Shown here piece by piece: positions 27,846 to 46,133 of a DNA stretch of 64,000 nt. The stretch lies in the NCBI GenBank assembly GCA_050253075.1, contig JBFWJS010000003.1:309458-373457 (forward strand). Direction: 5' to 3'. Every line of letters starts with the position of its first letter. The stretch's first letter is position 1. The position numbers and the translations under genes were made by a program. The notes under the pieces are model-generated. The model was not told the DNA's origin. It searched no databases and worked only from the letters and a program-made list of their open reading frames with translations. Source of the DNA: Deferribacterales bacterium (GTDB taxonomy: Bacteria > Chrysiogenota > Deferribacteres > Deferribacterales > Geovibrionaceae).

Positions 27846-27856
27846 GTAGTCGGTTG

Positions 27857-28789
27857 TTACGTTTTAAATTTAAGGTAGTGCTCAGTGATATCAGCTCGTT
27901 CGTGTCCCATCTCCTGGCTGACAATGACTAGCCCCTGCTCATGGACTTTGCCGGATTTCTGGAGTTCCTGCATGCGGTTCTGGGCGAAGTTCCAGCGTAG
28001 ACCGTGTGAGGCGTTGTATGGCTGACATGTTTCTTCTGAAGCTATTTTGAGGTGGTAAAGGTATTTGCCTTTATCAAATTTGAAATTGCCATCTTTTGCC
28101 AATATATCCGAAAGCTCTTTATAGTCTTCAGGATTGATCAGCAGGTCTCTGATTTTTCCGCCTTTACCTTTCACAGTTACACGGCTATCTCCCTTTAAAG
28201 ATGAAGGCATAATGCCGTAGACCTCATCTATGCGTGCTCCGCCAATATATTGAATAGATGCTATTAGCCGATGCGTAGGGTCTTCTAGCTTGGAGATGAG
28301 CTCTTCTGGATTATCGTATGACCTCACACCATCGAACCTCTGGAGAGCTTTATGAGCCTTTTGACGTGCGACTTCTATGGATTCGCCGAAATTGTACTCG
28401 TTACCTGTTTTGTGCGCCTCTGCGTACAGACTTAAAGCCACTGCTAACTTCTCTATGGCTGATGCGTATTGCATAAAAGTCGCATGCTTAACTGAATCAT
28501 CGATTTTTTTCATCAAGAATGATTGCATGTGTTCGCCTGTGAGAACCTCAATGTCTTTGATACCGAAGTGGGCTTTGGCATGCCTGAATGCAGATATCCA
28601 TATCTCACGATAGTCATCAGCGGTAGAGTATGAATATATCCCTGTATTTTGCCCTATGTCGTGCCATGTAACTTTTTGATCTGTGCTGTTTCTGAAGGCT
28701 TCTTTATCAGTGTGCTTTGACTTGCCTATCCTGTTGATTCCTGATGTCTTGAATAATGTCTGAACTTGGTATATTATGCTTCCTCTCAT
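27857..28789 (-). CDS. Tyrosine-recombinase-fold protein (possible MobK/MpsA-type relaxase)
   Basis: GARIDE, GKGGKIR, HGLRWNFAQ, VSQEMGHERADITEHY; start placed at MRGSIIYQ from the promoter geometry. Confidence 0.75.
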   Translation of the reverse strand: MRGSIIYQVQTLFKTSGINRIGKSKHTDKEAFRNSTDQKVTWHDIGQNTGIYSYSTADDYREIWISAFRHAKAHFGIKDIEVLTGEHMQSFLMKKIDDSVKHATFMQYASAIEKLAVALSLYAEAHKTGNEYNFGESIEVARQKAHKALQRFDGVRSYDNPEELISKLEDPTHRLIASIQYIGGARIDEVYGIMPSSLKGDSRVTVKGKGGKIRDLLINPEDYKELSDILAKDGNFKFDKGKYLYHLKIASEETCQPYNASHGLRWNFAQNRMQELQKSGKVHEQGLVIVSQEMGHERADITEHYLKFKT

Positions 28790-28919
28790 AAGTGTATAAT
28801 AACATTGTATTGATTTTGATTCAATAATGTATAATATACATTGACGAAAAGTTGATGGTCTATTAGATGTACCATCAGAGAGACCATCTAGGAAACACTT
28901 TGTTAAAGGTTTGGTAAAC

Positions 28920-29432
28920 ATGTATAAATACGATACTGAATATATAAAGGAACTAACGGGAATCAGCACTGCTGAGGCGAATTCTCTTGTGAAATACTAT
29001 TCAAAGCTGCCTGAGAATGTTCGTATCGAGTCGTTTAAACTGCAAACAGACCTGGCCAGACAAAACAAAGACGGGTTTGATAAAGAGAAAGCGTCAGAGT
29101 ATTACTACGGCATGCACCTACTAGCTTTGCGTGCTATGAAGCGTATAGAGACAGCTCAGGCCACAAAAGATTCGCTCACCGAAGAAGAGGCTATGAGGCT
29201 GCATAAGCTTCGCATAGAGCGTATCAAGGCCGGCAGAGGAAAGAAAGATAGCAAGAAAGCAAGGCTTATCAAAGAAACATTATTTCAGGAAATCAAAGAT
29301 ATGCACTTCAACGAGGGATTGTCCTGGAGGGAGATTGCAGACTACTTAGCAAAGTACCGCAAAGTGAGAATTTCTCACGGATACCTGCAACAGAAATTTA
29401 ATGAGGCGATGTTGTATGAGCAGGAAGATTAA
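28920..29432 (+). CDS. Hypothetical basic protein with C-terminal HTH-like motif
   Basis: GLSWREIADYLAKYRKVRISHGYL; divergent from the recombinase-fold gene; followed by hairpin GAGCAGGAA-N6-TTCCTGCTC-TTT. Confidence 0.65.
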   Translation: MYKYDTEYIKELTGISTAEANSLVKYYSKLPENVRIESFKLQTDLARQNKDGFDKEKASEYYYGMHLLALRAMKRIETAQATKDSLTEEEAMRLHKLRIERIKAGRGKKDSKKARLIKETLFQEIKDMHFNEGLSWREIADYLAKYRKVRISHGYLQQKFNEAMLYEQED

Positions 29433-29527
29433 TTCCTGCTCTTTATTTTGTGTTCAATTACCACGCCTGTGATTGCGATCAAAGCCATTCCGATTGTCAG
29501 CGATACGATAAATGTTCCGTATGTCAT
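29429..29527 (-). CDS. 32-aa single-TM peptide (absent from ORF track)
   Basis: MTYGTFIVSLTIGMALIAITGVVIEHKIKSRN*; AAGGAG 6 nt before the ATG. Confidence 0.55.
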   Translation of the reverse strand: MTYGTFIVSLTIGMALIAITGVVIEHKIKSRN

Positions 29528-29530
29528 TTC

Positions 29531-29719
29531 TTACTCCTTATGATTTTTTACTATACCATGTTTTTTAAGGTTTTGCTCTAAGGTCTTCTCCATATCTACA
29601 GCCATCTCTGTAGGATCAATAGGTAGCTCCAGCGTCTTGCAAAGAGCCTGGGCAAGCCTAGACAGGCTATCCAAATTGTTTATTCTTCTTTCAAATTCAA
29701 GTTCTTCAAACGCATTCAT
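29531..29719 (-). CDS. Small hypothetical protein (62 aa)
   Basis: AGGTG RBS; middle gene of a tight three-gene run. Confidence 0.55.
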   Translation of the reverse strand: MNAFEELEFERRINNLDSLSRLAQALCKTLELPIDPTEMAVDMEKTLEQNLKKHGIVKNHKE

Positions 29720-29726
29720 AATTCAC

Positions 29727-29942
29727 CTAGAAATATGAAACTTTCACACAATATATAAAGGCTGCAGCAAGCATAAAACCGACAAAATATGGGATATACT
29801 TTGCCCATGCTGGCGAGAAATCTTCAATCATATTCCCGCAAATAGGGCAATATGTTGCGATTGGTTGTCCGTGTTCGATATGCATTCTTGGTATTATGGA
29901 GCTACCGCATCCCGGACACTGTATTGTTGTTCTGTATGACAT
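29727..29942 (-). CDS. Small zinc-ribbon plus TM protein (71 aa)
   Basis: CPGCG...CPICG then a hydrophobic C-terminal helix; GGAGG RBS. Confidence 0.65.
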   Translation of the reverse strand: MSYRTTIQCPGCGSSIIPRMHIEHGQPIATYCPICGNMIEDFSPAWAKYIPYFVGFMLAAAFIYCVKVSYF

Positions 29943-30073
29943 ATAACCTCCTGTATAATATACATTATAGTATATTATACAAATACAAAATACAAGTGAA
30001 AGTTGCTGATTATATTTAAGTTGCCTTTATTCGAGAGCTGTAGCAGACTATATGAAAAGCCTTTGGGGATAAT

Positions 30074-30634
30074 ATGCTGCACTTTAATCTAAGCAAAAAC
30101 ATGTATGAGACTTTGTCGAAAGCTAAGGCAGATATGACTCATAATAAACCAAATAATGCATGGGATTGGCATGCTAAGATTATTAAGTTCGGAAGAGTTA
30201 ATTGCGTCATCGCCGTTGAGGAAGACACAAGATATGCAATATTCCTATGTGACCTCAAAAAGGCTGACTTCAAGATGTTTCACTATGCTTTCATGGATCA
30301 GTTTGAAAATCACATAGTAGACTTGTTTGGAGATACTTCTGTAGAGACGCAGAAGATTATATTTGATCTGGTTCTTCGGCTTAGGGGCAGTTGTTCTTAC
30401 TCAAAGCCAATGTCAAATAGTGTTATTTCCCATATGACACAGATGCAGTATGAGATTGAAGATTTTTGCCATAGAGACCTAGGCGGCTATCTGCCAGCAA
30501 CAAATCATCATTTACTTTCTCTCGGGCATCGCCTTAATGACAATATACGAACTCATAAAAACATAAAGACAGAGTGCATTGTGCCAATAAGAGAGTTTAA
30601 AGCTAAGATATTATCCATGCTCAATATAGACTAA
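30074..30634 (+). CDS. DUF6933-like hypothetical protein
   Basis: WDWHA...GRVNCVIAVEEDTRY..F and NSVISHM motifs. Confidence 0.6.
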   Translation: MLHFNLSKNMYETLSKAKADMTHNKPNNAWDWHAKIIKFGRVNCVIAVEEDTRYAIFLCDLKKADFKMFHYAFMDQFENHIVDLFGDTSVETQKIIFDLVLRLRGSCSYSKPMSNSVISHMTQMQYEIEDFCHRDLGGYLPATNHHLLSLGHRLNDNIRTHKNIKTECIVPIREFKAKILSMLNID

Positions 30635-31554
30635 TTTTTGTTAAAACATATTGCACCCTCAAGGGTTTCGGTAAAGTAGCCTCTAACCGCTCCTGGTGAG
30701 ATGATTTTGATATATGGGAGCCATGGGAGGCAAAGCTTGACGCATTCGATGTGGGACCCAGCCTGAAACTCTATGATGATGTCTCCGTTGTTGTGTTCGT
30801 CAACGATGCTCTGTTCTGGAAAAAATTCCTTTCGACGAATGTAGCCAGCCATCTGCTCTTTCAGCAGACATCTAACTTTTATCTTTTTCTCTGGATCGAA
30901 AAAGATATTATTGGCTTTTGATATCTCTTCATTCAGGACGTCATGCCCCATATCAAAGGACTCCCCAGTAGCTTTAATTTCATCCATTAAGTCGAGGCCA
31001 AATTTGCGGAGAGAGTCTTGTTCGTTAAGTGCAGCCAGGTACCAGAATCCGTCATTATATAAAAGCCGGTAAGGTTTAACTGTGTATGCTTTATCGTTTT
31101 TCTGATAATTGAATGAGATCACTTTTCTTTCTATGATATATTTCTCCAGGAGAGTGAAGTTTTCTGCAATCTTATCAAATCCCACCGAATCGGCCTTCAT
31201 AAATTGTATGACATTTTGTCTATTGGATGCGGATACGATCTTCTTTCTGAGCTTTGACAGCATGCCGGAATATTCGTCCTTCAGAATGTTCTCTGCATAA
31301 TCAAAAAGACCGGAGAGGACTGCCAGCTCATCCTGCTTTAAATAGCTCTCCTGAAGCCCGTAGTGCTCTGTCAGATACCAGTGATGCTTTTCATCGCTGT
31401 AGCATACTCCAGGGAGATAACTCATGTCAGAGAGATATCTCTGGGCAGTACGCAGGCTGACACCTAGTTCATCAGCAACCATGCTTGATGTGACATACCT
31501 ATTCTCATTCAGCAGTTTTATTAGTTTTAAGGCTATATATAGCTTATTCATCAA
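30631..31554 (-). CDS. HTH-WYL-WCX transcriptional regulator (YafY/PafC-like)
   Basis: VADELGVSLRTAQRYL HTH; VKPYRL...GFWYL...RKF.LD; C-terminal IKIISP. Confidence 0.92.
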   Translation of the reverse strand: MMNKLYIALKLIKLLNENRYVTSSMVADELGVSLRTAQRYLSDMSYLPGVCYSDEKHHWYLTEHYGLQESYLKQDELAVLSGLFDYAENILKDEYSGMLSKLRKKIVSASNRQNVIQFMKADSVGFDKIAENFTLLEKYIIERKVISFNYQKNDKAYTVKPYRLLYNDGFWYLAALNEQDSLRKFGLDLMDEIKATGESFDMGHDVLNEEISKANNIFFDPEKKIKVRCLLKEQMAGYIRRKEFFPEQSIVDEHNNGDIIIEFQAGSHIECVKLCLPWLPYIKIISPGAVRGYFTETLEGAICFNKN

Positions 31555-31558
31555 TAGC

Positions 31559-34500
31559 CTACTGTTTTTGTAACATCAGGACATTATTTTCGTTTCTTAT
31601 CTGATTTGAGGTCGCAAGGCAATTAATATTATCTCTTATCCTGTCTGCGATATTCTCAGTAGTTCTGGCAAATCCCAGTAAATTCGAAGTTTTCAAAACA
31701 GCTTCTTCGGAAGGGATAGAGAATGCATTTTGTATGATAAGCTTTAAAGCTTCCATGATTTCTTCGTCACAGATAAATTCAATTTTCTTTTCTTGGTTCT
31801 CCAACCCAGACCTATCTCGAACAATAGGAATTTCCATATTCTGATCCCATACGAAATCATTTCTGAATCTGAAATCGCCATTTTCGCTTCCAACTATGCA
31901 GGCGGAGTATACTGCAGTCTGGATTCTGGATCCTGATTTTTGTATGCCTGCTGATAGGCGAAGCCTTTTGGTGAGTTCATCCACATGTATGGGCGATTCT
32001 GTTTTTGCTACTTCTACGATGTATGGGATTAGCTCCCCTGTATATAATTCATGGAAGTTTCTTCCGAACAGAGAGACTTCTACATCTGATTTCATATATT
32101 CTTGAGCTTTGAAAAATTCAGGCACAGAAACTGTTTCACGCTCAATTGTCTTGGGCTTGATGGACTCATTTTTTATACTTCTAGCTTCTTCATCGAATTG
32201 TTTCTCCGCAGCGTCCTTCATTGCCTGTAATACTTTTTCAAGCTCTTTTTCCGGAGAACGATACCAGTCAGTACTCCATATCCGGTGAATATTCCACCCG
32301 AGACCTTCCAGGACTTCCTGCCTGAGTCGGTCTCTGTCTCTGGCTGCTTTTGCACTGTGATATGTTGCGCCGTCACACTCGATTCCTAGTAGATATCTGC
32401 CCGGGAAATCATTATGTTTAATACCTATGTCGATCCGATATCCTGCTGTGCCTACCTGTGGCTCTGTCTCTATGCCTCTGTCGAAGAGAGCGTTAATAAC
32501 AGCGTCCTCAAAAGGAGAGTCTGTATCTTTACCAGTAGAATAAGGCTGCTGAATTTTCTTAGTTTCGGAATATTCCAGAAAGTATCTCAGAGCATGTGAA
32601 CCTACAGATGTTGAGTTTCGTAAATCCATTTCGGCAGCTCTGAAGTTACTGAAAACAACCATACTTAGTTTTGCTCTGGAAATAAGTACATTAAGCCTTC
32701 TTTCACCGCCATTCTTTGTTAACGGACCAAAATTCATCGAAAGCTGTCCCTCGGCAGTTTTCCCATACCCGATGCTTATAAAAATAGTGTCTCTTTCATC
32801 ACCCTGAACATTCTCAAGGTTTTTAATAAAGAAGCTTTCGTATTTATCTCTTGCGAAAAAGTCCTCGAAGCTATCATCTTTTGAGCGTAAATACTCCAGA
32901 TGAGCTTCAATAGCATCTCTCTGCTCCATGCTGAAGGCAACAACTCCGAGAGAGCGTTCCGGTTGAGTTTTTATATGTTCGATGACTGCCTGAGCAACGA
33001 TTTCAGCCTCTTTCTGATTGGTTCGAGATTTTCCTTTGTCATAGACAGTTTGAGGGCTATATCTGAGGGATAGTCCTCTTCCTTCTAAGTCAAAATGAGG
33101 AGATGGGAAGACAATGAGCCTATTGTCATAGAATTTATAATTGGAAACTGCAATCAGAGAATCGTGTCTGCTTCTGTAATGCCACTGGAGCATTCTTTCG
33201 AGCGCACCCTTCGCAGTAAACAGGCTAAGGATGCTTTCCATGTCTCCGACATTGTTATAGTCATCTTCATCTTCTGATTCTCCGCCTATCTTACCGAAGA
33301 AGTTTGTTGGCGGAAGCTGTTTGCTGTCTCCGACTACAATCGTCTGCTTTCCTCTAAGGATTGCGCCAAAAGCATCTATAGGTTTCACTTGGCTAGCCTC
33401 GTCAAAAACAACAAGATCGAACTGCAGTGAGCCAAGGGGCAGGTATGTTGCTATAGACATAGGGCTCATCATGAAAACAGGTTTAATTGCCTGTATTGCA
33501 TGACCGGCAGTCTCTATGAGTTTTCTAATAGGCATATGTTTTCTTTTCTTAGAGATTTCGTTTCTGATGGTAGCCATCTCGCCATCGAAACCTTTCGGAA
33601 TGTTTGACCAGTGCTGAAGGGCTATTTTCTCGCAGTTCTTAGCCATAAGCTTTTTGTCTATTTCAGAAAAAGACATGATCTTAGTTTTGTGACCAACGCA
33701 GTTAAAGTTTGCTATTTCAGGTGTATTCCTATAGGTCATATCTGTTATTTCTTTGTACCAGAAGAAGTCATACGCATTTAGATAGTCAGCCGCAGAGTGT
33801 TTCCACTCAAAAGCTATGTCTGCCAGTTCACTTTTTCCGTGCTCTTTCAGACGTTTCTTGAGTGAGTTGAAATATACGATATCATCTAGTTTATCAATAT
33901 TTTCTAGCCAGTTATGGAGTTTATTGCTCTTTGTAGCCAAATCCGTATTCTCAGTAATCTCGATCATGATAATTTCTTTCAGGTTATTCTGCAGTCCAGC
34001 TGTTTCCTCTAATAACCCGACATTCTGTTTGCATTTCTCATATATCTCAGAGGTTTTTGGGTTGCTGACCAAGTCGAGAGCACATGGTAATAGCTCGCCA
34101 TTTTGTATCGCTGCATGTTTATCACACATCCAGTCTAATATAGATTTTATCCTGTCCCAATCTGTGCTGCTTATTGTTAGATTTTCTTCTATCAGCTGCT
34201 GCAAAAGCGGCAAAGTCTTTTCTGTCTCCGGTAAGTTCTTCCTAACATAAATGACAGAGTCGAGCATCTTGACGACGGTGCCAGCTTTAAAATCAAAACT
34301 ACCTTTTATATACCCTTTAACAGACCTTGCGGCTTTCCGGTAGTCTCCAGACAGGAATCGCCACCATTTATCACCGACAGAAGCGATCACCTTTCTTTCA
34401 TTAAGGAAGTCAGTCTCCCATGCCTCTTCAATAAGTACTGATTGATAATCATTATAAGAGGATTGTACCTGCTGGACATTGGCTATAGTGTTTCTGATTG

Positions 34501-36211
34501 CATCTGGGCTGCTTGTCCACTTTTCAGAATGCTTATCGACGCTCGAAATATCCGGAGCATCCTTGATTTGCTCAATTGTTTGAATTAAGTGCGCCATCTC
34601 TTCAACAGTAGGGGAGAATGATGCTTTTATATCGGAAGCCATTTCATTTGTTGAGGATGTAACCTTAGATATATTATCAAGTGCTTGTTTGATGATTTTT
34701 ACAGTATTTGACTTGTCATCAGGAGGCAGCATGCTGATGCTGCTTGCGGCAAATGGGTTCTCGCTGGGTGTACCATATTCTTTAAGATAGTCAGCGATCT
34801 CTGTGATGATATTTCTTATTTTCTGGTATTCTTCCTGATTTAAATTAAGCTGTGGATATTTTTCGCCATCTTCCAGTGGGTTTTTAATTTTGCTCAGCTG
34901 ACCGATAGCGTATATAAAACTGAAATCGGTACCGGCAATTTTCTTATTAACGGCTTCACAGTAGCTGTTTAACCTGTCACGTGCTGCGAGGTAGTCCTGC
35001 ACATCGTATCTGTCGTCATTTATCTTTGGTTTTCCGCTTATCATTACTCTTTCGAGCTCTGCCAGAAAGTTCTTTTTATTCGTTTTAAAGCTATGCAGCT
35101 CAAGGACAGCATCACCGATACCAGCCTGATCCAGCCTGTTTTTAACAACATCCAGGGCGGCCATTTTTTCGGAGACAAAGAGTATCTTCTTACCTCTGGC
35201 GATATTCTCAGCAATTATATTTGTAATGGTTTGTGATTTTCCTGTACCGGGAGGACCCTGTATAACAAGGCTCTTGCCTGAGCAGGCATCCAGTATGGCA
35301 AGCATCTGTGTTCTGTCAGCGTCCTTAATCAGGTGGCTGTTTTCTGGACTTACCATATCATCGATATTATCGTCATCAGAATACTCACTGATGTTATCTC
35401 TGAATCCTTCGTTAAGCAAAGCATCAAGGACAGCGGACTCTTCGTTCTTCCATTTCTCAGCTTCCAGATCTTTATACATAAGAAATTTACCGAATGAGAA
35501 GAATCCCAGTGTTATATCATCCCTTTCCACATGCCAGTTATTCATCCCGCTGACAGTTTGCTCCACATCGCTGAAATAGCTGTTTATATCAAAGTCTTCG
35601 ATATCATTAATCGCTGGCAGTGTTATGGCGAATTCTGATCTGAGCTTTTCTGCTAATGAAAGGTTTTCGCCTATGTCGTCGCTATTGTATTCAATGCTGA
35701 AACGGTCTCTTGCGCTTTTTCTGGAAATAGTTACAGGGATCAAAACCAGAGGCGCACGCCTCATTTGACTGGAGCTTTCAGACTCATGCCAGTGGAGGAA
35801 CCCAAGAGCCAGATAAAGTATATTTACCCCCTGTTCCTCAAGGTATGTTTTGGCATCATTATGTATGGATAAAAGTTTCTTCTGAAGCTTATCAGAAGAC
35901 ATCTTGGTTTGCAGCTTGCTGTCATAGTGTCTGTCAGCGTAACCTCTTGCATCGATGATTTCTTCGGGTTGTTCCAGTAAAAGTCCAATGTCAGTTTCGC
36001 CATTTTCGTCATCAATCAACTCTTCCGGCAAAGGTATAAAGGACATCTTTTTCCCATGAGCAACCATAATATCAAAAATGCTGTCAGACTTTTCGTCAAC
36101 AATTTCGATCTGTTTTCTTTTTCTGCTGTAGTTAATCAGGGTATTCCTTAAGGAAAGGTCTAAGAGTTCTTTTCGGCTTTTCTCAAGCGTTACAAGTGTT
36201 TCTGTGATCAT
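31559..36211 (-). CDS. DUF4011-SF1 helicase-Vsr-like nuclease-DUF3320 protein (Hhe-like defence protein)
   Basis: LLDLSLRNTLIN, QGPPGTGKSQTI, FDEASQ, VGDSKQLPP, HYRS, ENVQGDERD, RRLNVLISRA, SPFE, GIECDGATYH..RDRDRLRQ. Confidence 0.88.
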   Translation of the reverse strand: MITETLVTLEKSRKELLDLSLRNTLINYSRKRKQIEIVDEKSDSIFDIMVAHGKKMSFIPLPEELIDDENGETDIGLLLEQPEEIIDARGYADRHYDSKLQTKMSSDKLQKKLLSIHNDAKTYLEEQGVNILYLALGFLHWHESESSSQMRRAPLVLIPVTISRKSARDRFSIEYNSDDIGENLSLAEKLRSEFAITLPAINDIEDFDINSYFSDVEQTVSGMNNWHVERDDITLGFFSFGKFLMYKDLEAEKWKNEESAVLDALLNEGFRDNISEYSDDDNIDDMVSPENSHLIKDADRTQMLAILDACSGKSLVIQGPPGTGKSQTITNIIAENIARGKKILFVSEKMAALDVVKNRLDQAGIGDAVLELHSFKTNKKNFLAELERVMISGKPKINDDRYDVQDYLAARDRLNSYCEAVNKKIAGTDFSFIYAIGQLSKIKNPLEDGEKYPQLNLNQEEYQKIRNIITEIADYLKEYGTPSENPFAASSISMLPPDDKSNTVKIIKQALDNISKVTSSTNEMASDIKASFSPTVEEMAHLIQTIEQIKDAPDISSVDKHSEKWTSSPDAIRNTIANVQQVQSSYNDYQSVLIEEAWETDFLNERKVIASVGDKWWRFLSGDYRKAARSVKGYIKGSFDFKAGTVVKMLDSVIYVRKNLPETEKTLPLLQQLIEENLTISSTDWDRIKSILDWMCDKHAAIQNGELLPCALDLVSNPKTSEIYEKCKQNVGLLEETAGLQNNLKEIIMIEITENTDLATKSNKLHNWLENIDKLDDIVYFNSLKKRLKEHGKSELADIAFEWKHSAADYLNAYDFFWYKEITDMTYRNTPEIANFNCVGHKTKIMSFSEIDKKLMAKNCEKIALQHWSNIPKGFDGEMATIRNEISKKRKHMPIRKLIETAGHAIQAIKPVFMMSPMSIATYLPLGSLQFDLVVFDEASQVKPIDAFGAILRGKQTIVVGDSKQLPPTNFFGKIGGESEDEDDYNNVGDMESILSLFTAKGALERMLQWHYRSRHDSLIAVSNYKFYDNRLIVFPSPHFDLEGRGLSLRYSPQTVYDKGKSRTNQKEAEIVAQAVIEHIKTQPERSLGVVAFSMEQRDAIEAHLEYLRSKDDSFEDFFARDKYESFFIKNLENVQGDERDTIFISIGYGKTAEGQLSMNFGPLTKNGGERRLNVLISRAKLSMVVFSNFRAAEMDLRNSTSVGSHALRYFLEYSETKKIQQPYSTGKDTDSPFEDAVINALFDRGIETEPQVGTAGYRIDIGIKHNDFPGRYLLGIECDGATYHSAKAARDRDRLRQEVLEGLGWNIHRIWSTDWYRSPEKELEKVLQAMKDAAEKQFDEEARSIKNESIKPKTIERETVSVPEFFKAQEYMKSDVEVSLFGRNFHELYTGELIPYIVEVAKTESPIHVDELTKRLRLSAGIQKSGSRIQTAVYSACIVGSENGDFRFRNDFVWDQNMEIPIVRDRSGLENQEKKIEFICDEEIMEALKLIIQNAFSIPSEEAVLKTSNLLGFARTTENIADRIRDNINCLATSNQIRNENNVLMLQKQ

Positions 36212-36297
36212 ATCAAAACCTGCGATTAAAATTATACAATATAATATTTTGCACTCTATATAGTAGATTTACAATACGAAATTATAATGACTTTGAA

Positions 36298-36329
36298 CGA
36301 CAAGATCTGTCGCTTGCCTGGTTTATTCT
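36298..36329 (+). promoter_or_regulatory. Putative WYL-activator site and -10 box for the lipoprotein gene
   Basis: Palindrome CGACA-N5-TGTCG (36298-36312); TGTCGC-N10-TATTCT. Confidence 0.65.
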
Positions 36330-36349
36330 GATAAAAACAGGAGGCGGCA

Positions 36350-36757
36350 ATGTTTAAAAAAATTGTAGTGGTTCTGGTTATTGTATCGTTTTGCTTCAGT
36401 TGTGCCAAAAGACAGCCTAATACGATAATGGCGTATCAGCCAGGGGATGAAAACAGAAGCTGTCAGTCGATCCTAAGTGAAATCTCCTATTATCACAACA
36501 AAATCAATGAAAAGTCCGGTGAGGTAAACAGCAGGACAGGTAAGAATGTTGCTCTAGGAGTCACAGGAGCTTTCCTGATAGTTCCTCTTTTCTTCATGGA
36601 TCTCAGCGGAGCGGAAAAAACAGAGCTTGAGTCCTATAAAATGCGTATTGAGCGTCTTCAGCTCATCGCTATGGAGAAGAGCTGCTCTTTCACACCGATT
36701 AAGTTTGAGGACAAAAAAGAAGAAACCCCAACACAAGAGGAGCAGACCACAGAGTAG
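36350..36757 (+). CDS. Small lipoprotein with internal hydrophobic segment
   Basis: Lipobox-like CFSC, GGAGG RBS, two further Cys, segment VALGVTGAFLIVPLFF. Confidence 0.8.
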   Translation: MFKKIVVVLVIVSFCFSCAKRQPNTIMAYQPGDENRSCQSILSEISYYHNKINEKSGEVNSRTGKNVALGVTGAFLIVPLFFMDLSGAEKTELESYKMRIERLQLIAMEKSCSFTPIKFEDKKEETPTQEEQTTE

Positions 36758-36760
36758 CCT

Positions 36761-36790
36761 AGTGCCCTCTTTGCAGGGCACTTTTCTTTT
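36761..36790 (+). terminator. Intrinsic terminator after the lipoprotein gene
   Basis: AGTGCCCT-N6-AGGGCACT-TTTCTTTT. Confidence 0.75.
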
Positions 36791-36855
36791 ACAAAGTATT
36801 CCGATTTTACAAAGCCTTGTGTTATATTATTCACAGTACATGAGAGAGGTAACAA

Positions 36856-38397
36856 ATGACCCTGACACTTGAAACACTGGAGAGCTGGCTGTGGGGAGCT
36901 GCGGACATTCTGCGTGGCAATACAGACAGCTCAGACTATAAAAACTATATATTCGGACTGCTCTTTTTAAAGCGGGCAAATGATGTTTTCTTCGAAGAGG
37001 TGGAGAGAGCAAAACAGGAAGGCTACACCCGTGACGAAGCGATAGAGGACGATGACCTCCACCAGTTTGTCCTGCCGGAGAGTGCCTTCTGGAGTACACT
37101 CACCAAAAAGACTGAGAAAATTGGCGAAGCGATAGACAAAGCCTTTGCCGAGATAGAAGAGCGGAACAAATCGCTGGCTGGCGTTATGACAGCCGTACAT
37201 TTCGGAGACAAAGAGAAGCTGACAGACGCCACCCTTATGCGTCTGCTCGGTCATTTCAATAAATACTCACTGGCTAATGACGACCTCTATACCCCAGACC
37301 TCTTGGGTCAGGCGTATGAATACCTGATAAAGCAGTTTGCTGACGATGCCGGAAAGAAAGGGGGCGAATTCTATACCCCGAAGGGCGTTGTAAAGCTGAT
37401 AGTAAACCTTATCAGACCGGAAGCGGGCAACACTGTCTACGACCCTACATGCGGCTCCGGCGGTATGCTCATCGAGTCCGCCAGATACATAGCCGAAGGC
37501 GGCGGCAAGACACCCACAGGGAAGGTAAACACAACTCTCTATGGACAGGAGCGTAACCTCGGCACATGGGCTATATGTAAGCTGAACATGATCCTGCACG
37601 GATATATGGACGCAAACATTGCCAAAGGCGACACTCTGGGCGACCCGAAACACAGAGACAGCGACGACACTGTTAAAACATTCGACAGAGTTATAGCCAA
37701 TCCGCCGTTCAGTATGGACGGCTGGTGGGATGCGGAGGAAGTATCCGCAGAGGCACAGGGAGCAAAGCCTAACTATACCAAAAATGTTAATGACGGTTTC
37801 GGACGTTTCACATACGGAGTTCCGCCACGCAGCTATGGTGACCTCGCATTTGCCCAGCATATGATAGCATCTCTTCGTCAGGATGGGCGCATGGGCGTTG
37901 TTCTGCCTCATGGTGTGCTTTTCAGAGGGAGCGCAGAGGGGAAGATTCGCACAGGTATGCTGAAGGACGACATTATAGAGGCTGTGGTAGGTCTCCCCAG
38001 CAAACTATTCTATAACACAGGCATACCCGCATGTGTGCTTATCATAAACAAGAGTAAGCCCGCCGAGCTGAAAGGCAAGGTTATCTTCATAGATGCATCA
38101 GCAGAGTTTAAAGCAGGCTCAAACATGAACATGCTGGAGCAGGAACACATCGACAAGGTTGTGCAGGCGTATAGCGCTGGCGAAGATGTTGATAAATTTA
38201 TGCGTATAGTGCCGATGGCTGAGATAAAAGATAACGACCACAACCTGAACATCGCCAGATACATCGACACCAGCGAAGAGGAAGAGCCAGTAGACATCGA
38301 AGCTACTTTAAAAGAGATAGCCGAGCTGGAACAGGCAGAAGAACAGATAGACACCAAATTGAAAACCTACCTTCAGGAGCTTGGCTATGAGTCATAA
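36856..38397 (+). CDS. hsdM: Type I RM methyltransferase subunit
   Basis: LW.AADILRG, GEFYTP, YDPTCGSGGML, ANPPF, HGVLFRG. Confidence 0.96.
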   Translation: MTLTLETLESWLWGAADILRGNTDSSDYKNYIFGLLFLKRANDVFFEEVERAKQEGYTRDEAIEDDDLHQFVLPESAFWSTLTKKTEKIGEAIDKAFAEIEERNKSLAGVMTAVHFGDKEKLTDATLMRLLGHFNKYSLANDDLYTPDLLGQAYEYLIKQFADDAGKKGGEFYTPKGVVKLIVNLIRPEAGNTVYDPTCGSGGMLIESARYIAEGGGKTPTGKVNTTLYGQERNLGTWAICKLNMILHGYMDANIAKGDTLGDPKHRDSDDTVKTFDRVIANPPFSMDGWWDAEEVSAEAQGAKPNYTKNVNDGFGRFTYGVPPRSYGDLAFAQHMIASLRQDGRMGVVLPHGVLFRGSAEGKIRTGMLKDDIIEAVVGLPSKLFYNTGIPACVLIINKSKPAELKGKVIFIDASAEFKAGSNMNMLEQEHIDKVVQAYSAGEDVDKFMRIVPMAEIKDNDHNLNIARYIDTSEEEEPVDIEATLKEIAELEQAEEQIDTKLKTYLQELGYES

Positions 38398-39646
38398 ACT
38401 GCCTGATGGGTGGAGAGAGGAAAGCTTATCAAATATTACAAACATCATAGTAAGTAATGTAGATAAGAAGTCGTCTTCTACAGAAATACCAGTGACTCTT
38501 TGTAATTATATGGATGTTTATAACAACTCATATATAGATAAATCTCTTAATTTTATGACTGCGACAGCTACAAAAGAGGAGATAAATAAATTTTCTCTTA
38601 AAGTTGACGATGTCTTAATCACTAAGGATTCTGAAACCCCTGAAGATATTGCTATTCCAGCCGTAGTTTCTGAAATTTTTGATAACTTTGTTTGTGGTTA
38701 CCATCTAGCGATATTGAGACCGAAAAACGGTCTTGCGGGACGTTTTCTTAATAATATTTTGATGTCAAAAAAAGTACATAATCATTTTGTACGTTTTGCA
38801 AATGGGGCAACAAGATTTGGTTTAACATTAGATGCAATAAAAAAAGCTAAAATTCCACTCCCCCCAATAGAAGAGCAGAGGAAGATTGCGGAGATACTGG
38901 GCACTGTGGATGAGAAGATAAGCAACATAGACCAGCAGATATCCGCCACAGAAACCCTGAAAAAAGGACTGATGCAAAAACTCTTCACCGAAGGCATCGG
39001 ACACACCGAATTCAAATCCACCGAAATCGGCACCCTCCCCAAATCATGGGAGGTTAGGTCAATTGAAAATATTGCTGATGTTTCATCAAGTAAAAGGATT
39101 ATGAAGTCTGAATATGTTAATGAAGGAATTCCTTTTTATCGCTCTAAAGAAATTATTTTAAAATCTAGAAGGCATAAGCTCGCAGATGTAATATATATCT
39201 CGAATGAAAGATTTATTAGTCTAAAAGAAAAATTTGGCGCACCTGTAACTGGAGATATCCTGATAACAGCAGTAGGCACAATTGGGGTTTGTTATGTTGT
39301 ACAGGAAGAAGAGTTTTACTTTAAGGATGGTAATTTACTTTGGATGAGAAATATTTCAGATAACTTAAACTCTGATTTCTTAATTTATTATTTTCAAACG
39401 AGAAATTTTAAGAAATCAATTGAGGATGTTAGTGGTGGCTCAAATCAGCATGCTTTAACGATCATTAAATTTAATAATGTATGCCTTCCTTTACCACCCA
39501 TTGAAGAACAGCAAAAAATTGCATCTATACTGACAGAGGTGGATAACAAGATAGAATCCCTGAAAAAGAAAAAAGAGAAATACACCACCCTGAAAACAGG
39601 ACTTATGCAGCAACTCCTCACCGGACAAAAGCGAGTCGAGATATGA
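38387..39646 (+). CDS. hsdS: Type I RM specificity subunit
   Basis: LPDGW and LPKSW starts, two TRDs each ending PLPPIEEQ.KIA, LMQQLLTG. Confidence 0.95.
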   Translation: MSHKLPDGWREESLSNITNIIVSNVDKKSSSTEIPVTLCNYMDVYNNSYIDKSLNFMTATATKEEINKFSLKVDDVLITKDSETPEDIAIPAVVSEIFDNFVCGYHLAILRPKNGLAGRFLNNILMSKKVHNHFVRFANGATRFGLTLDAIKKAKIPLPPIEEQRKIAEILGTVDEKISNIDQQISATETLKKGLMQKLFTEGIGHTEFKSTEIGTLPKSWEVRSIENIADVSSSKRIMKSEYVNEGIPFYRSKEIILKSRRHKLADVIYISNERFISLKEKFGAPVTGDILITAVGTIGVCYVVQEEEFYFKDGNLLWMRNISDNLNSDFLIYYFQTRNFKKSIEDVSGGSNQHALTIIKFNNVCLPLPPIEEQQKIASILTEVDNKIESLKKKKEKYTTLKTGLMQQLLTGQKRVEI

Positions 39647-40833
39647 GTGAACTTGAGAAAGTTAAAAAATTACATGAAGAAGGAAAAATCGGATATGTAA
39701 CTATAGATACGTCGATACTAGAAAAATATATACATGAGCCAACTTCTGGAATGTGTAGACTACTGAGTAAGTTTAAGCTTCACGGTATAACGTTGACCCT
39801 ATCATCCATTGTGAGAAATGAGTTGATTAAGCATAAAGTTGATGAATATGAGGAGAAAAGAGAGAAAGCTAAGAGTGGGTTAAACGCTGTTAAAAAATTT
39901 ATAAATATTCAGCCATATCCATATGATGATTTAATAGATAAAATTGAATCTCAAGATACGCTTAAGCAGGCTTCTGCTTTATTAGAAGATTTTGAAGATA
40001 TTACAGAATGCGAGACCCTTGGTTTGGAGAGCGTTCAAACCGATGAAATTTATGATAAATATTTTCAACAGAAGCCCCCTTTTGGTAAGAAACAAGATAA
40101 AAAACACGAGTTTCCAGATGCTGCTGCATTAATATCTTTTAGAAACCTTGCAGATAAAGAAGGTAAATATATTGTTGTGGTAGCAAAAGATAATGACTGG
40201 AAAGGTTTTTGTGAAGAAAATGAATGCTTGATATATATTGATGACTTGGATGGCTTGCTGACGTTATTTGATGATCAAGATGCACTAAAGCATATGGAGA
40301 GCTACATTGATAATAGGCTCGATAATTTGAGTGATAAAGCATTTCTTGAGAGGTCAATACGCCAATATGTTTCTGAAAGAGTAGAAGAAATGAAACCCAT
40401 CTCAGACTCTTGTCTTTCATATAGGTATGAAATTTTAGATAATTCAATTGTTTTAGATGATTTTAACATAATACAACAAATCCAATCTCTTTCATTGGAG
40501 AGCGGGTTGTATACATTTGAAATTGAACTTGAGATTTTTGTAAATGCTACAGCATTATTTTATTTCTTTGTTAGAGATAATGAGATGCGTGAAGATACTA
40601 TTACGAAAGACTCTCACATTCATACAACTACATCTGGTGCTGCTGTTATTTCTATAGATGTTAGCGACTTTGTGCACTATGAAAATAATAAACCGTGTAT
40701 AAATACCAATTCTCTTGCAGGTGCAAATTTTACAGGTATAGAGATTGTTGATATAAGTGTTTATATCAGCGGTTTTTCACCAAGTTATGATGAAGTAGAG
40801 AGAACCTGGCTACCAGATTCTGATACATATTAA
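39643..40833 (+). CDS. PIN-like domain protein (DUF4935/PIN_12-like)
   Basis: IDTSIL, IVRNE, YF..KPPFG..KKHEFPDA, KDNDW acidic motifs; ATGA overlap with hsdS. Confidence 0.75.
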   Translation: MSELEKVKKLHEEGKIGYVTIDTSILEKYIHEPTSGMCRLLSKFKLHGITLTLSSIVRNELIKHKVDEYEEKREKAKSGLNAVKKFINIQPYPYDDLIDKIESQDTLKQASALLEDFEDITECETLGLESVQTDEIYDKYFQQKPPFGKKQDKKHEFPDAAALISFRNLADKEGKYIVVVAKDNDWKGFCEENECLIYIDDLDGLLTLFDDQDALKHMESYIDNRLDNLSDKAFLERSIRQYVSERVEEMKPISDSCLSYRYEILDNSIVLDDFNIIQQIQSLSLESGLYTFEIELEIFVNATALFYFFVRDNEMREDTITKDSHIHTTTSGAAVISIDVSDFVHYENNKPCINTNSLAGANFTGIEIVDISVYISGFSPSYDEVERTWLPDSDTY

Positions 40834-40848
40834 GACTGTAGTGAGAGG

Positions 40849-40874
40849 TATTTCATATTTCAAAATATGAAATA
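40849..40874. promoter_or_regulatory. Perfect 12-bp inverted repeat, likely operator of the HTH/nucleotidyltransferase pair
   Basis: TATTTCATATTT-CA-AAATATGAAATA; half-site AATATGAAAT recurs at 40929. Confidence 0.6.
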
Positions 40875-40924
40875 AGCTTTACGTGCATAAGTATATGTGG
40901 TTATATTGAGTTAATAATCACATT

Positions 40925-41458
40925 ATGGAATATGAAATGAAATCTATCAGTGTATATGTTCTTGCAAGTTTAATAGTTAAGAGAGAGCGTTCCGGTTCTT
41001 ATGAAAACTGGGCCAATGAAATTGGTTTGCCAGTGGCGACACTGTTCCGCAGTGTTAAAACTCTTCGTCAGGTAAAACTGATCACAGAGACTGTGGATGG
41101 AGACGTACCGAATTATCAGAATGCAGAAAAGTTTTTGCTGTATGGTTTTCCATTCTGCTTTCATGCAGAGAAGGGAAAGCTGGTACGTGGGTTTAAAACT
41201 GGTGTGGATGCTACTTCTCTTAGGAATGAGTTTGCAGAAGTCGATTATCCTGCCGTATGGCCTCATCACAAGGGCGATGTAAAAGGGTTTGGTATAAAAC
41301 CATTGCATCCTAGTATCCCTGAGCAGGTTGCCGAAGGCAAGATGGATAAGAACCTTTACGAGCTCCTTGCTCTGCTGGATACTGTTTGTGTCGGGCAGGC
41401 TAGAGAGGTTAAGGCCGCTCAGGAAAAGATAAAGGAAATATTGAACGATCATGAATAA
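40925..41458 (+). CDS. wHTH-containing protein (AbiEi-like antitoxin candidate)
   Basis: WANEIGLPVATLFRSVKTLRQVKLI HTH; VWP...G...PLHPS; overlaps the next gene. Confidence 0.65.
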   Translation: MEYEMKSISVYVLASLIVKRERSGSYENWANEIGLPVATLFRSVKTLRQVKLITETVDGDVPNYQNAEKFLLYGFPFCFHAEKGKLVRGFKTGVDATSLRNEFAEVDYPAVWPHHKGDVKGFGIKPLHPSIPEQVAEGKMDKNLYELLALLDTVCVGQAREVKAAQEKIKEILNDHE

Positions 41459-42137
41459 CAGAGACCTGCTCATAAGAATGGCGACAGCACTGAAACCGAT
41501 GCTGGATAAATTCGTTTTTGTCGGCGGCTGCGCTGTTGACCTGCTGGTGACAAGTGAAGCTGTAAACGATGTGCGGATAACTAATGATGTGGATGTCATC
41601 GCTGAGATAGCCACACAGCATCAGTATTACGAGCTTATAGACCAGTTGAAAGAACTGGGCTTTAATGAAAAGATGCCGACACCGGACGATAACTCTCCCA
41701 TATGCAGGCTTATAAAGGAAGGCATGCTGCTGGATGTGATGCCTACGGATGAAAGTGTTCTAGGTTTTTCAAATATCTGGTATCTGCCAGCCCTGAAAAA
41801 TGCGAGAAAGGTCAGCCTTACAGAAGATATTACAGTAAAGGTTGTTACCTCTGCGTATTTCATTGCCACAAAGCTGATGGCTTTCCGCACCAGAGGCGAA
41901 AGCGACTATTACTGCCACGATATGGAAGACATAATCACTGTCTTCAACGGAAATGATAACATAGTGGAAGATATCAGAAACGCTGAGGATGATGTCAGAG
42001 AATATATCAAAAAAGAATTTAGCGAGCTTATGACGGACAGACTGTTTAAAATTAACTGTCTGCCTGCGCATCTGGCCACGGAAAGCCCGAAGCGTGCAGA
42101 GCTTGTTTACGAAAGGATAAAGGACGCCGTTTCATAA
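41451..42137 (+). CDS. Pol-beta-like nucleotidyltransferase (AbiEii-like toxin candidate)
   Basis: FVGGCAV...R.TNDVD, LDVMP, ATKL.AF..RG, HDMEDI. Confidence 0.72.
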   Translation: MNNRDLLIRMATALKPMLDKFVFVGGCAVDLLVTSEAVNDVRITNDVDVIAEIATQHQYYELIDQLKELGFNEKMPTPDDNSPICRLIKEGMLLDVMPTDESVLGFSNIWYLPALKNARKVSLTEDITVKVVTSAYFIATKLMAFRTRGESDYYCHDMEDIITVFNGNDNIVEDIRNAEDDVREYIKKEFSELMTDRLFKINCLPAHLATESPKRAELVYERIKDAVS

Positions 42138-42205
42138 TATATGCACTATGCCAGAACATATGGCACAGTGCAGAAAATCTGGAACGATCCTGCCGGAGAA
42201 GATAG

Positions 42206-45196
42206 ATGTCTGAATATAAAACGTCGGAACTGCCGGCGATAGAGCTTTTGCAAAAGATGGGTTATGAATACTTTGACGCTTCAAAGAGCGACCCCAGAGG
42301 CAGCATACACGAGGTTGTGCTGACTGACAGACTGGAGACCGCCATCCGCAGGCTGAACCCCTGGATGGATGACAACGGCATAAACAAGTGCCTGCATAAG
42401 CTGACAAAGGTAACCGCCGACAGCCTGATGAGTGCGAATAATAACATTCATAAGCTGATCACAGCATCTGCCATCTCAGACTTTTCCATACCAGACCCAG
42501 AAACCAAGCATCACAAGACTCCGATCTTCATAGATTTCCAGAATCCTGAGAATAATGACTTCCTCGCCGTGAACCAGATGAAATATTACGGCAGCAAGGT
42601 GAACTCCATACCGGATATAGTGCTGTATGTGAACGGTCTGCCTCTGGCTGTTATCGAGTGCAAATCACCGACCAATAGGAACGCCATTGAGGAATCTGTT
42701 AGCGACCTGATCTATTATCAGGAGAACAGTCCGGAGCTTTTCCATTATAACCAGATATGTGCCGGAATATACGAAGTCGGCGGCAGGTACGGAAGCATAG
42801 GGGCAAAGAGCACGCATTACAGCGAGTTCAAATCTGAGGATAATTCCGAACTGGAAACCCTGACTGGTAAACAGCCGACCAAGCAGGATGTGCTTTTATA
42901 TAACCTTTTCCGCAAAGATAAGTTTCTGGATGTGATCCGTGACTTTGTAATCTATGAGACAGAAGAAGGACGGACTATAAAGAAGCTCCCACGCTATCAG
43001 CAGCTGAGGGCTGTGCATAAAACACTGCATAAACTGCAGACAGACAAAGAGGGCGGCGTTGTCTGGCATACGCAAGGGAGTGGAAAGTCCATCACCATGC
43101 TTTACCTCGCCATTAAGCTGAAGCGTGAAGAGAGCGGATTCGACAACCCGACTATTATCATTCTCACCGATAGGGTTGACCTAGATAAGCAGATATCAGA
43201 CACCTTTAAAAGGTGCAGCCTGCCGAATGTTATCCGTGCAAAGTCTGTCAGAGACCTAAAGGATAAGCTGAAAGACAGCTACGGAAAAACTATCACCACC
43301 ACCATACACAAGTTTGACGAAGAGATGCCGGACGACATTGAGAACGTCCAGCCGCTTTCTGAGGCTGAGAACCTTTTTGTTATGGTGGATGAGGCGCACA
43401 GAAGCCAGTATGGGCTCTTCGCTGCTTATATGAGAAAACTCCTGCCCAATGCTAAATATATCGCCTTTACAGGCACTCCTATAGATAAAGAGACCAAGAG
43501 CACCCTGAACACCTTTTACGGTGGAAAATACATAGATAAATACACTATCAAGCAGTCTGTGGAAGACGGAGCGACACTGCCTATACTTTATGACATAGGC
43601 ATACCTGAGCTGTTTCTGGAAAAGGAGCAGATGAATAAGCGGTTTGATGATTACTTCGGTGATGAATCCGAAGAGAAAAAGAAACTGCTGAAACAGAAAG
43701 CCACAGGAATGGGCAGCCTGCAAAATGCCAGAGAGCGGATCAAGCGTATTGCTGAGCATATCGTCAAACACTATGGGGAAAAGATTTATCCTAGCGGCCA
43801 CAAGGCAATGCTCGTCTGCTACAGCAGGCAGGCGGCTGTCGAATATAAGAAAGCACTGGATGATGTTGTGGGCAATACTTTTGAGAGCAGAGTCATCCTC
43901 AGTCAGAACACTAAGAAAGATCCGCAGGAGTTCTCAAACTATATTACTCCTGAAAATGACGTTGATAAGGTTATAACTGAATATAAGCTCCCTTTTGGTG
44001 ACGAATCAGAGGTTCGCAAGGACGGCAAAAAGCAGTATAGCAATATCGCATTCCTGATTGTCTGTGACATGCTCCTGACGGGTTATGATGCCCCCATTGC
44101 TCAGGTGATGTATCTTGACAAGCCTATAAAGGAGCATAGCCTCCTGCAGGCTATTGCTAGAGTGAACCGGACGAGAGCCGGAAAGGCGTATGGTCTGATA
44201 GTTGACTTCTGTGGTATTACGCAGTTTCTGGTTGAGGCTCTTGATGCCTTTAGTGGGGACCTCGAGCCATCAGACGTTATGACAGACCTGAATGCCGAAA
44301 AGCCAAAGCTGGACGCTAACCATAATAAGCTGGTGAAGTTTTTTAAAACCGTCAAGGTTGACCCACGAAGCGATAGAGAGGGTTATATTAATGCCTGCGT
44401 GCAGATGCTGGAACCGGAGGATATTCGGGATGAGTTCAAGGTTCTGCTGAAGGCTTTTAACAGGTCTATGGATATAGTCCTGCCTGATGATTATGCGGCA
44501 CAGTATGGATATGACTTTAAGCTGTATAACGACATACGTAATAAGGCAGCGAACACCTATGTAGATAATTCCCTGCATCTCTCCAGCGAGGACTATAAGA
44601 AGCTGAAAAAGCTTATGGATGAGCATCTGCGGGCAAGCGGTGTCTCACATCTGCTGGATGAGCCTGTCGCTATTACCGACCGCAAAAAGTTTCAGGAAGA
44701 GCTGAGTAAGGTCAGCGACCTGAAGACCAGAGCCCTCACCATTGAAAACAGAATAAAGCATAAAATTACGGTAGAGATAGATAAGAACCCTGAGTTTTAT
44801 AAACCGATAGCCGAACTGCTTCAGGAGTTGATAGAGAAGCGGAAAGCAGGAATTATGTCTGTTGCAGATTTGCTGGAAGAGTATGAGAAGATGATGGAAA
44901 GAATTTCTAAGCATGGCAACGGAGGCTTTGAGACTGAGCAAGAGTTTGCGGTCTTTAAAACGCTTGAGAAGCACGTTAACGGTAGAGCTGCGGGGCTTAC
45001 ACCAGAGCTGTTAAAAATTGCTTACGAACAGATTACAGACAGCACAGGCAAAGTTATTTCTGACTGGCATACCAAAGAATATGAAATGAAAGAGATGCGC
45101 AATGCCATCAAGATGAGGATGAAGGACGAACTTGGTATGAAAGCGGCGGCCACACTTGCGCAGGATGTTGTCGAGATACTCAGGAAAAACGCATGA
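42206..45196 (+). CDS. hsdR: Type I RM restriction subunit
   Basis: PDIVLYVNGLPLAVIECK, WHTQGSGKS, DEAHRSQY, FTGTP, MLLTGYD, QAIARVNR. Confidence 0.96.
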   Translation: MSEYKTSELPAIELLQKMGYEYFDASKSDPRGSIHEVVLTDRLETAIRRLNPWMDDNGINKCLHKLTKVTADSLMSANNNIHKLITASAISDFSIPDPETKHHKTPIFIDFQNPENNDFLAVNQMKYYGSKVNSIPDIVLYVNGLPLAVIECKSPTNRNAIEESVSDLIYYQENSPELFHYNQICAGIYEVGGRYGSIGAKSTHYSEFKSEDNSELETLTGKQPTKQDVLLYNLFRKDKFLDVIRDFVIYETEEGRTIKKLPRYQQLRAVHKTLHKLQTDKEGGVVWHTQGSGKSITMLYLAIKLKREESGFDNPTIIILTDRVDLDKQISDTFKRCSLPNVIRAKSVRDLKDKLKDSYGKTITTTIHKFDEEMPDDIENVQPLSEAENLFVMVDEAHRSQYGLFAAYMRKLLPNAKYIAFTGTPIDKETKSTLNTFYGGKYIDKYTIKQSVEDGATLPILYDIGIPELFLEKEQMNKRFDDYFGDESEEKKKLLKQKATGMGSLQNARERIKRIAEHIVKHYGEKIYPSGHKAMLVCYSRQAAVEYKKALDDVVGNTFESRVILSQNTKKDPQEFSNYITPENDVDKVITEYKLPFGDESEVRKDGKKQYSNIAFLIVCDMLLTGYDAPIAQVMYLDKPIKEHSLLQAIARVNRTRAGKAYGLIVDFCGITQFLVEALDAFSGDLEPSDVMTDLNAEKPKLDANHNKLVKFFKTVKVDPRSDREGYINACVQMLEPEDIRDEFKVLLKAFNRSMDIVLPDDYAAQYGYDFKLYNDIRNKAANTYVDNSLHLSSEDYKKLKKLMDEHLRASGVSHLLDEPVAITDRKKFQEELSKVSDLKTRALTIENRIKHKITVEIDKNPEFYKPIAELLQELIEKRKAGIMSVADLLEEYEKMMERISKHGNGGFETEQEFAVFKTLEKHVNGRAAGLTPELLKIAYEQITDSTGKVISDWHTKEYEMKEMRNAIKMRMKDELGMKAAATLAQDVVEILRKNA

Positions 45197-45891: not shown

Positions 45892-46103
45892 AACTAACAA
45901 AAGGTCTAATAGCTATATTTTAGAGAATAGGTCTTCAAATAAATCAGATTAAACTAATTCATAAATAACAACTAAAACGACCGTTTTAAGTTGTAGTAAT
46001 GATAAAAATGTAGTAAAAATTTAACATATGCTATTTACCCTTTTAAGGGTTTGAAAGAAGTATGTGATATTCACATTATGCATTAGTTACCCCTTCAGGG
46101 GCG

Positions 46104-46133
46104 AGGCCTGCCATTTTACTTGGTGGGCCTTTT
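46104..46133 (+). terminator. Putative intrinsic terminator
   Basis: AGGCCTGCCA-N7-TGGTGGGCCT-TTT. Confidence 0.55.

Follow-up and report, generated by a model that had tools for sequence, protein, structure and literature searches.

We identified a palindromic box in a Deferribacterales defence island that lies between the gene for a small lipoprotein and an oppositely oriented operon for a helicase and a WYL-domain regulator. The DNA analysed, called the window below, is the whole stretch of 64,000 nucleotides. We consider it rather likely that a signal of damaged or foreign DNA would lead a dimer of the WYL regulator to recruit RNA polymerase at this box and so induce the lipoprotein, probably together with the helicase-WYL operon. 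Binding, polymerase recruitment and the single-stranded DNA (ssDNA) signal are carried over in this reading from the regulators DriD of Caulobacter crescentus and DdaA of Moraxellaceae.

Palindromic box and flanking promoter elements

The box, of the DriD/DdaA type RCGWCA-N5-TGWCGY, occupies positions 36297..36313, is assigned to neither strand and is likely used in both directions. It reads ACGACA-N5-TGTCGC (36297-36313), within which CGAC-N7-GTCG spans 36298-36312. Its right half-site TGTCGC (36308-36313) is followed after a 10-nt spacer by TATTCT (36324..36329, + strand), the predicted -10 element toward the lipoprotein; a related genome (G031) and a metagenome locus (L120) have TAATAT at this offset. 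On the other side, a perfect TATAAT (36281..36286, - strand) lies exactly 10 nt past the box and is the predicted -10 toward the helicase-WYL operon, while a second TATAAT (36231..36236, - strand), read from the sequence 20 nt before the helicase start codon, is possibly the basal promoter of that operon. No match to the -35 consensus was found at the lipoprotein promoter, where the -35 position coincides with the box centre. The box would be centred near -31; DdaA boxes are reported about 50 bp upstream of start sites (PMC12392091), a difference that counts against the activator reading. A ribosome-binding site AGGAGG (36339..36344, + strand) precedes the lipoprotein gene (36350..36757, + strand), and a hairpin with a T-tract resembling an intrinsic terminator follows it (36761..36790, + strand; hairpin 36761-36782). 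Because this terminator-like hairpin is succeeded by an extended -10-like TGnTATATT (36820-36828, + strand) before hsdM, the lipoprotein gene is likely monocistronic. The elements listed in the preliminary description, namely the palindrome CGAC-N7-GTCG, TGTCGC-N10-TATTCT with no obvious -35, the ribosome-binding site, the 135-aa lipoprotein and the terminator, were all located in the sequence.

The core CGACA-N5-TGTCG occurs once exactly in the window, and four sites with at most one mismatch stand against 0.90 expected. The host genome (G000, 3.04 Mb) contains two exact copies; for the thirty 5-N5-5 palindromes obtained by permuting its letters the counts are 0-17, and the raw genome count, falling within this range, was rejected as evidence. 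What is non-random in G000 is the placement of the box rather than its count. The second exact copy precedes a WYL paralogue by 35 nt and is part of a conjugative element on the contig that also holds the window, and all four exact RCGWCA-N5-TGWCGY boxes of this genome are intergenic and within two mobile elements that carry the WYL family. The half-site TGTCG[CG]-N10-TA-N3-T alone matches G000 53 times, in nearly every case within an ORF, and is hardly informative unless the palindrome accompanies it.

Box distribution and link to the WYL family

WYL orthologues were found in 32 of the 63 genomes of the host's order, many of them with RCGWCA-N5-TGWCGY just upstream. The motif was derived from these upstream regions and turned into a matrix of 21 sites from which the window's own site was left out. 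The four top-ranked sites in G000, all intergenic, are the promoter of the WYL paralogue, a DEDDh exonuclease just after it, the window locus and another lipoprotein gene, unrelated to the first, of the conjugative element. By a hand tally of the 63 genomes, an exact box is present in 31/32 WYL-positive and 6/31 WYL-negative genomes, a co-occurrence that is partly circular, as the pattern came from the same genomes, and that involves relatives which are not independent. The four g2 genomes, which lack the WYL family, have no box, compared with 5-8 matches to controls in each. An outside check on the derived motif comes from DdaA: the box matches its published motif CGWCA-N5-TGWCG, and recA, I-F cas and type I restriction-modification (RM) genes are among the DdaA targets (PMC12392091). 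The window palindrome is thus well supported, as a prediction, as a DriD-type site matching the DdaA motif, that is, a WYL-activator box. Identity as a LexA box was rejected: LexA is present both in G000 and in the box-free g2 genomes, and neither lexA nor recA of G000 has a box. Three distant plasmid WYL homologues (24-26% identity) had no box at up to two mismatches within 200 nt.

The conjugative element of the host genome (G000:C3:26879-27866; L003, L215) carries a WYL protein 89% identical to that of the window, and its gene has a box and, on each strand, TGnTAGAAT. Another box precedes the DEDDh exonuclease gene, and a divergent multi-gene cassette has, by eye, the look of a DUF499-type defence system; its partial first gene had no PADLOC match. 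A third WYL protein of the genome, YafY-like (G000:C1:714074-715100; L001), has TGACA-N6-TGTCA upstream and is divergent from what appears by eye to be a small gene of the pyridoxamine-oxidase family.

Spacing between box and -10 element

We analysed 97 distinct boxes out of 158 in the 63 genomes and L120; 79 were called intergenic and 18 were set aside as inside long ORFs, some of them probably wrongly. TA-N3-T starts 10 nt past the box on 42 of 158 intergenic box sides, compared with 1-13 sides at other offsets, except for offsets 4 and 5 (15 and 25 sides), which are the layout of WYL's own promoter. After de-duplication, 22 of 60 gene-facing sides have the 10-nt spacing, against a mean of 2.9 and a maximum of 11 in 5000 shuffles. 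Mycobacterial PafBC reportedly activates TGTCGG-N10-TA-N3-T promoters; as the 10-nt spacing follows from DriD alone, the PafBC analogy is not needed. In the cryo-EM work on DriD, the oligo of its activated didA promoter reads TGTCGC, 10 nt, CAATCT, with an optimised -35 placed inside the box, the assignment of CAATCT as -10 being our own reading of the oligos (PMC13004042). Activation of the lipoprotein by WYL is therefore a well-supported prediction, given the DdaA motif, the tracking of the box with the WYL family and the spacing shared with didA.

When TA-N3-T is strictly required at 10 nt on each side, only 3 of 79 boxes are two-sided. The two-way site of DriD itself is active in a single direction (PMC13004042); equal use of both directions is therefore not assured here. 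By this analogy, one of the two promoters flanking the window's box may be silent. The preliminary description had made the lipoprotein the one gene activated by WYL. An activator box with activator geometry stands at this gene, as that account supposed; the lipoprotein is, however, not the sole target, as the box faces two ways and G000 has three further boxes.

Genes with the 10-nt spacing include recA (8 sites), type I-F cas1 (3 sites), DEDDh exonucleases, an hsdM-like gene (assigned by eye) and small membrane proteins. Four lipoprotein families occur among 30 target families, compared with 3% lipoproteins among G000 ORFs by a crude heuristic (binomial p 0.012). The recA genes with a box belong to genera g4 and g18 (L184, L185, L240, L242, L250, L227-L229, L262), with LexA present in most of these genomes; the boxes possibly mark a regulon take-over in progress. 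The cas1 sites come from three g4 genomes (L188, L189, L217). In other g4 loci (L093-L099), the WYL start codon lies about 6 nt past a TGn-extended -10, so the WYL mRNA is probably leaderless, and a 47-48-aa membrane peptide is encoded divergently from the core WYL gene under a box. An unrelated lipoprotein family that starts with Cys-poly-Gly also has the box with 10-nt spacing (G000:C3:58854; L191, L196, L182), its genes lying opposite an SSB-like gene or opposite WYL itself. In L087 (about 15520-15740) and L120 (1137-1364), the box has a membrane ORF of 62-75 aa on its other side. That of L087 is convergent with a traG-like gene, the position of eex in SXT elements.

The WYL regulator

The regulator, a 306-aa wHTH-WYL-WCX protein (30631..31551, - strand), starts 7 nt after the helicase stop codon, and its closest solved relative is DriD. 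WYL scores above the profile cut-off, with WCX (23.1 vs 23.9) and HTH_11 (22 vs 25) just below. DriD was the top full-length profile match (E 6e-13), and BrxR/CapW did not appear among the profile matches at E<=0.01. A fold search with the structure model (pLDDT 72, pTM 0.38) likewise placed DriD first (E 1e-15), compared with 2e-9 to 9e-7 for CapW/BrxR, and PafBC also ranked above CapW/BrxR; with DriD and PafBC ahead by profile and fold, BrxR/CapW was rejected as the closest kin. No named DdaA occurred among the 120 matches listed for WYL, and one DdaA supplement file contains no Deferribacterota names.

The two base-reading arginines of the recognition helix (R34, R38) and the two sensing tyrosines (Y149, Y171), equivalent to DriD R37, R41, Y168 and Y192, are invariant in 24/24 members of the WYL family. 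The equivalents of DriD R178, R207 and R210 are Tyr156, Gly185 and Leu, with no arginine at any of the three in any member, and the family therefore falls outside the strict DriD type with its ssDNA-contact arginines R178 and R207. The position of DriD R176 is K/R in 22/24 members and that of R204 is R/K in 24/24. In DriD, R207A impairs and R176A-R178A abolishes activation (PMC9186387); together with the replaced arginines, this means that the ligand of the WYL protein, or its affinity, may differ from that of DriD, and a family without the three sensor arginines may read a different nucleic-acid signal. DdaA, too, has lost the first of the two sensing arginines, but its tyrosines still mediate a response to damage, and its residues aligned with the DNA-binding arginines and sensing tyrosines of DriD are required in vivo (PMC13010146); by this analogy, ssDNA sensing by the WYL family is plausible. 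A DUF6933 (PDC-S63) gene lies convergent with and downstream of WYL (window 30074-30634); in the conjugative element and in another genome, G018, it is one gene farther downstream.

The lipoprotein and its homologues

The 135-aa lipoprotein belongs to family phrog_13472, a membership shared by 48/48 aligned members. The lipobox Cys18 is a cysteine in 46 of 48 aligned homologues, and Cys38 and Cys112 are invariant. In the structure model, the protein forms a helical hairpin (38-71, 78-109), probably disulfide-clamped, with a hydrophobic tip at about 67-85 (mean hydropathy 2.1 over 19 aa). It had no match in Pfam, NCBIfam or PADLOC, only unnamed lipoprotein clusters in the ESM Atlas, and only generic helical hairpins without a stand-out in a fold search (best Z 8.6). 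The family is spread mainly in Proteobacteria. A literature search, with most subscription journals outside it, found no paper on this family or on the regulator in Deferribacterota.

Within the order, the lipoprotein occurs in 3 of 63 genomes. G031 and L120 keep the box and the -10 upstream of it, with the flank further upstream diverging and neither WYL nor helicase beside them; the WYL gene of G031 is on another contig. The homologue in G019, 70% identical, has no box. The idea that lipoprotein homologues stand next to WYL genes with the same motif was not borne out: the WYL profile was found in 0/154 homologue loci (positive controls found; only 67 loci with 3 kb on both sides), and the box in 1/148 other loci with enough upstream sequence, namely L120.

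The gene heads a type I RM cassette in the window, an SNF2-type III RM cassette in G031, where it follows a traG-like gene by eye, BREX brxAB in L120, and PDC-S11-Gabija in L027, where it follows trbL. In a scan of the neighbours of distant homologues (107 of 140 extracted flanking genes), most genes had housekeeping roles or no assignment and a smaller share coded for integrase, resolvase, transposase, TrbL, Mrr, Fic or HicB, and the family as a whole is accordingly not defence-linked. Relatives of the lipoprotein do recur at defence hotspots and in prophages. Among 13 viral loci, the gene stands directly after a DNA-transfer gene and before the tailspike in three, is flanked by a virion protein gene and a tail gene in two and belongs to a cI cassette in one, and in Kagunavirus (11 phage records) the homologue is an antisense insert among head genes. 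The slot after ejection genes is the sieA site, such slots being used for accessory and exclusion genes, and Cor, Llp and TrbK are entry-exclusion lipoproteins. SieA itself was rejected as an identity for the lipoprotein: it spans the inner membrane three times and lacks a signal peptide (PMC10883804), in contrast to a lipobox and a single hydrophobic hairpin.

The island, the helicase and the RM cassette

The defence island (about 32 kb, 16194..48694, no strand assigned) is inserted at tRNA-Leu(CAG) (48609-48694) and is marked by a 32-bp att copy (16194-16225) and an integrase gene (47351-48586). Close homologues carry Denitrovibrio and Seleniivibrio names. The helicase gene (31559..36211, - strand) encodes a 1550-aa protein of the architecture DUF4011-SF1 helicase-REase_MTES_1575-DUF3320. 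Its best match is PADLOC PDC-S37, at 1814 bits and end to end (8-1545 of 1550). NCBIfam ProA (NF058533) reached 1449 bits against a cut-off of 1500, with the first 359 profile positions uncovered. The name Hhe (NF042953), used in the preliminary description, had to be given up at 1060 bits against a cut-off of 2000, as PDC-S37 and ProA fit better. The helicase was found in 4 of 63 genomes of the order (E<=1e-60).

The type I RM cassette headed by the lipoprotein (36856..45891, + strand) comprises hsdM, hsdS, a PIN-domain gene, the PDC-M21A/B pair, hsdR and a YgjP-like gene; the PIN-domain gene and the AbiEii-like PDC-M21A/B pair are inserted between hsdS and hsdR (39643-42137). At the low-GC left end of the island, positions 16408-19524 encode a 1038-aa protein whose N-terminal domain is of the SIR2 type (ThsA/Dsr2 profile matches). 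A segment at 28703-29996 is 80% identical to G000:C1:676442-677741, which suggests a related element elsewhere in the genome.

Discussion

In the mechanism we favour, damaged or foreign ssDNA would be the signal on which WYL, or its 89%-identical paralogue, binds the box as a dimer. Lying over the -35 position, the dimer would recruit sigma70 polymerase to the -10 elements 10 nt away and so activate back-to-back promoters that have no -35, the lipoprotein on one side and the defence helicase with WYL itself on the other. The lipoprotein would then belong to the interchangeable targets of a small regulon rather than to a fixed system, its gene heading defence hotspots in mobile elements, and the hydrophobic tip of its lipid-anchored hairpin would dip into a membrane or bind a DNA-entry channel. 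From gene position only, the likeliest role of the lipoprotein, though one to which we would not give even odds, is to keep phage or conjugative DNA from entering at the envelope. A broader proposal is less probable still: phrog_13472 could be an undescribed DNA-entry exclusion lipoprotein common to prophages and conjugative islands, coupled in Deferribacterales elements to an activator of the DriD type, which in G031 would be the core copy of the host acting in trans, so as to form an inducible envelope gate that closes after the first hit of foreign or damaged DNA.

A WYL-activated lipoprotein could instead act as a damage-induced growth or division checkpoint, or as a membrane-disturbing abortive effector, in the manner of DidA or AciT. 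DriD and DdaA activate small membrane division inhibitors (PMC10853764, PMC13010146), the regulon described here has several small membrane proteins, including the 47-aa one divergent from the core WYL of g4, and the hairpin tip is strongly hydrophobic. However, many genomes have homologues amid housekeeping genes and one homologue lies in the cI cassette of a prophage, as would be expected of a protein that is tolerated, and the lipoprotein has no Pfam, NCBIfam or PADLOC match; we regard this role as rather unlikely.

The box might also work mainly leftward, for the helicase-nuclease and WYL, with the lipoprotein weakly expressed or neutral cargo. TATAAT is a better -10 match than TATTCT, the two-way site of DriD is one-directional (PMC13004042) and most lipoprotein homologues have no box. 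Yet it is the box and the lipoprotein-facing -10 that G031 and L120 keep, with no helicase adjoining, and the one close helicase orthologue inspected, in G026, lacks a box upstream, so we consider this arrangement unlikely.

Distinctly less probable is a BrxR/CapW-style repressor operator, in which a sigma70-like TTTGCA-16-TACAAT upstream of the box (36248-36275, + strand) would transcribe the lipoprotein, WYL bound at about +15 to +31 would block it and damage would relieve the block. That promoter-like sequence matches the consensus at 9/12 positions, WYL repressors do control defence islands that include type I RM (PMC9122601), and the promoters of the WYL genes themselves have a TGn-extended -10 at 4-5 nt past the box, a layout that suggests autorepression. 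Sigma70-like matches in the box region are nevertheless at chance level (14 observed vs 14.8 expected), this one is not kept in G031, the 10-nt spacing peak needs activator geometry and DriD ranks well above BrxR/CapW. A dedicated three-gene defence system of helicase, WYL and lipoprotein, proposed earlier as an Hhe-WYL-lipoprotein system, is very improbable and as a conserved unit largely refuted: all three genes flank one box in the island and could be co-induced, but the combination does not recur, helicase and lipoprotein occurring together only in G000 of the 63 genomes, WYL being absent from the lipoprotein loci surveyed and the G026 helicase lying, by eye, between an upstream Fic-like and a downstream KdpD-like gene.

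Both the motif and the mode of activation are already in print for DriD and DdaA. With DdaA (PMC12392091, PMC13010146), the system shares the motif, the wHTH-WYL-WCX architecture, boxes at recA, I-F cas1 and RM genes, the loss of the first sensor arginine and coexistence with LexA, as in basal DdaA lineages; early DdaA copies were described as regulators of neighbouring genes. The differences are that the host belongs to another phylum, the second arginine is also lost, the G000 WYL and all four boxes are confined to mobile elements with recA and lexA left without a box, and the targets include lipoproteins, a word absent from the main texts of both articles. With DriD (PDB 8TP8, 9PFQ; PMC9186387, PMC10853764, PMC13004042), it shares a CGAC-N7-GTCG box that covers the -35 position, a spacing of 10 nt up to the -10, a two-way site adjoining the regulator gene, and the conserved HTH arginines and WYL tyrosines. 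It differs in having about 20% identity, replacements at R178, R207 and R210, a mobile and defence context, and a -10 at activator spacing in both directions. BrxR/CapW resembles it as a WYL regulator with an inverted repeat heading BREX or RM cassettes in mobile elements, whereas BrxR/CapW repress and rank structurally below DriD and PafBC (PMC9122601). The helicase is like PDC-S37, ProA and Hhe in its DUF4011-helicase-REase-DUF3320 architecture, and the lipoprotein resembles P22 SieA and the entry-exclusion lipoproteins in that phrog_13472 homologues follow ejection genes, trbL or traG-like genes.

These findings, largely predictions from genome comparison, would extend the DriD/DdaA activator logic to another phylum, and they allow two states to be compared: in G000 and G018 the regulon stays within mobile elements, and in g4 and g18 the box is at recA, in g4 also at cas1. 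The two states resemble the take-over route proposed for DdaA. Furthermore, finding a WYL gene in a defence island does not by itself imply a repressor of the BrxR kind, and the box offers a starting point for experiments on a lipoprotein family that is widespread and unannotated and takes exclusion-type positions in phages and islands. In one phage record (PQ436005.1, 3001-3306; L268), the lipoprotein homologue is unannotated and antisense ORFs are called over it.
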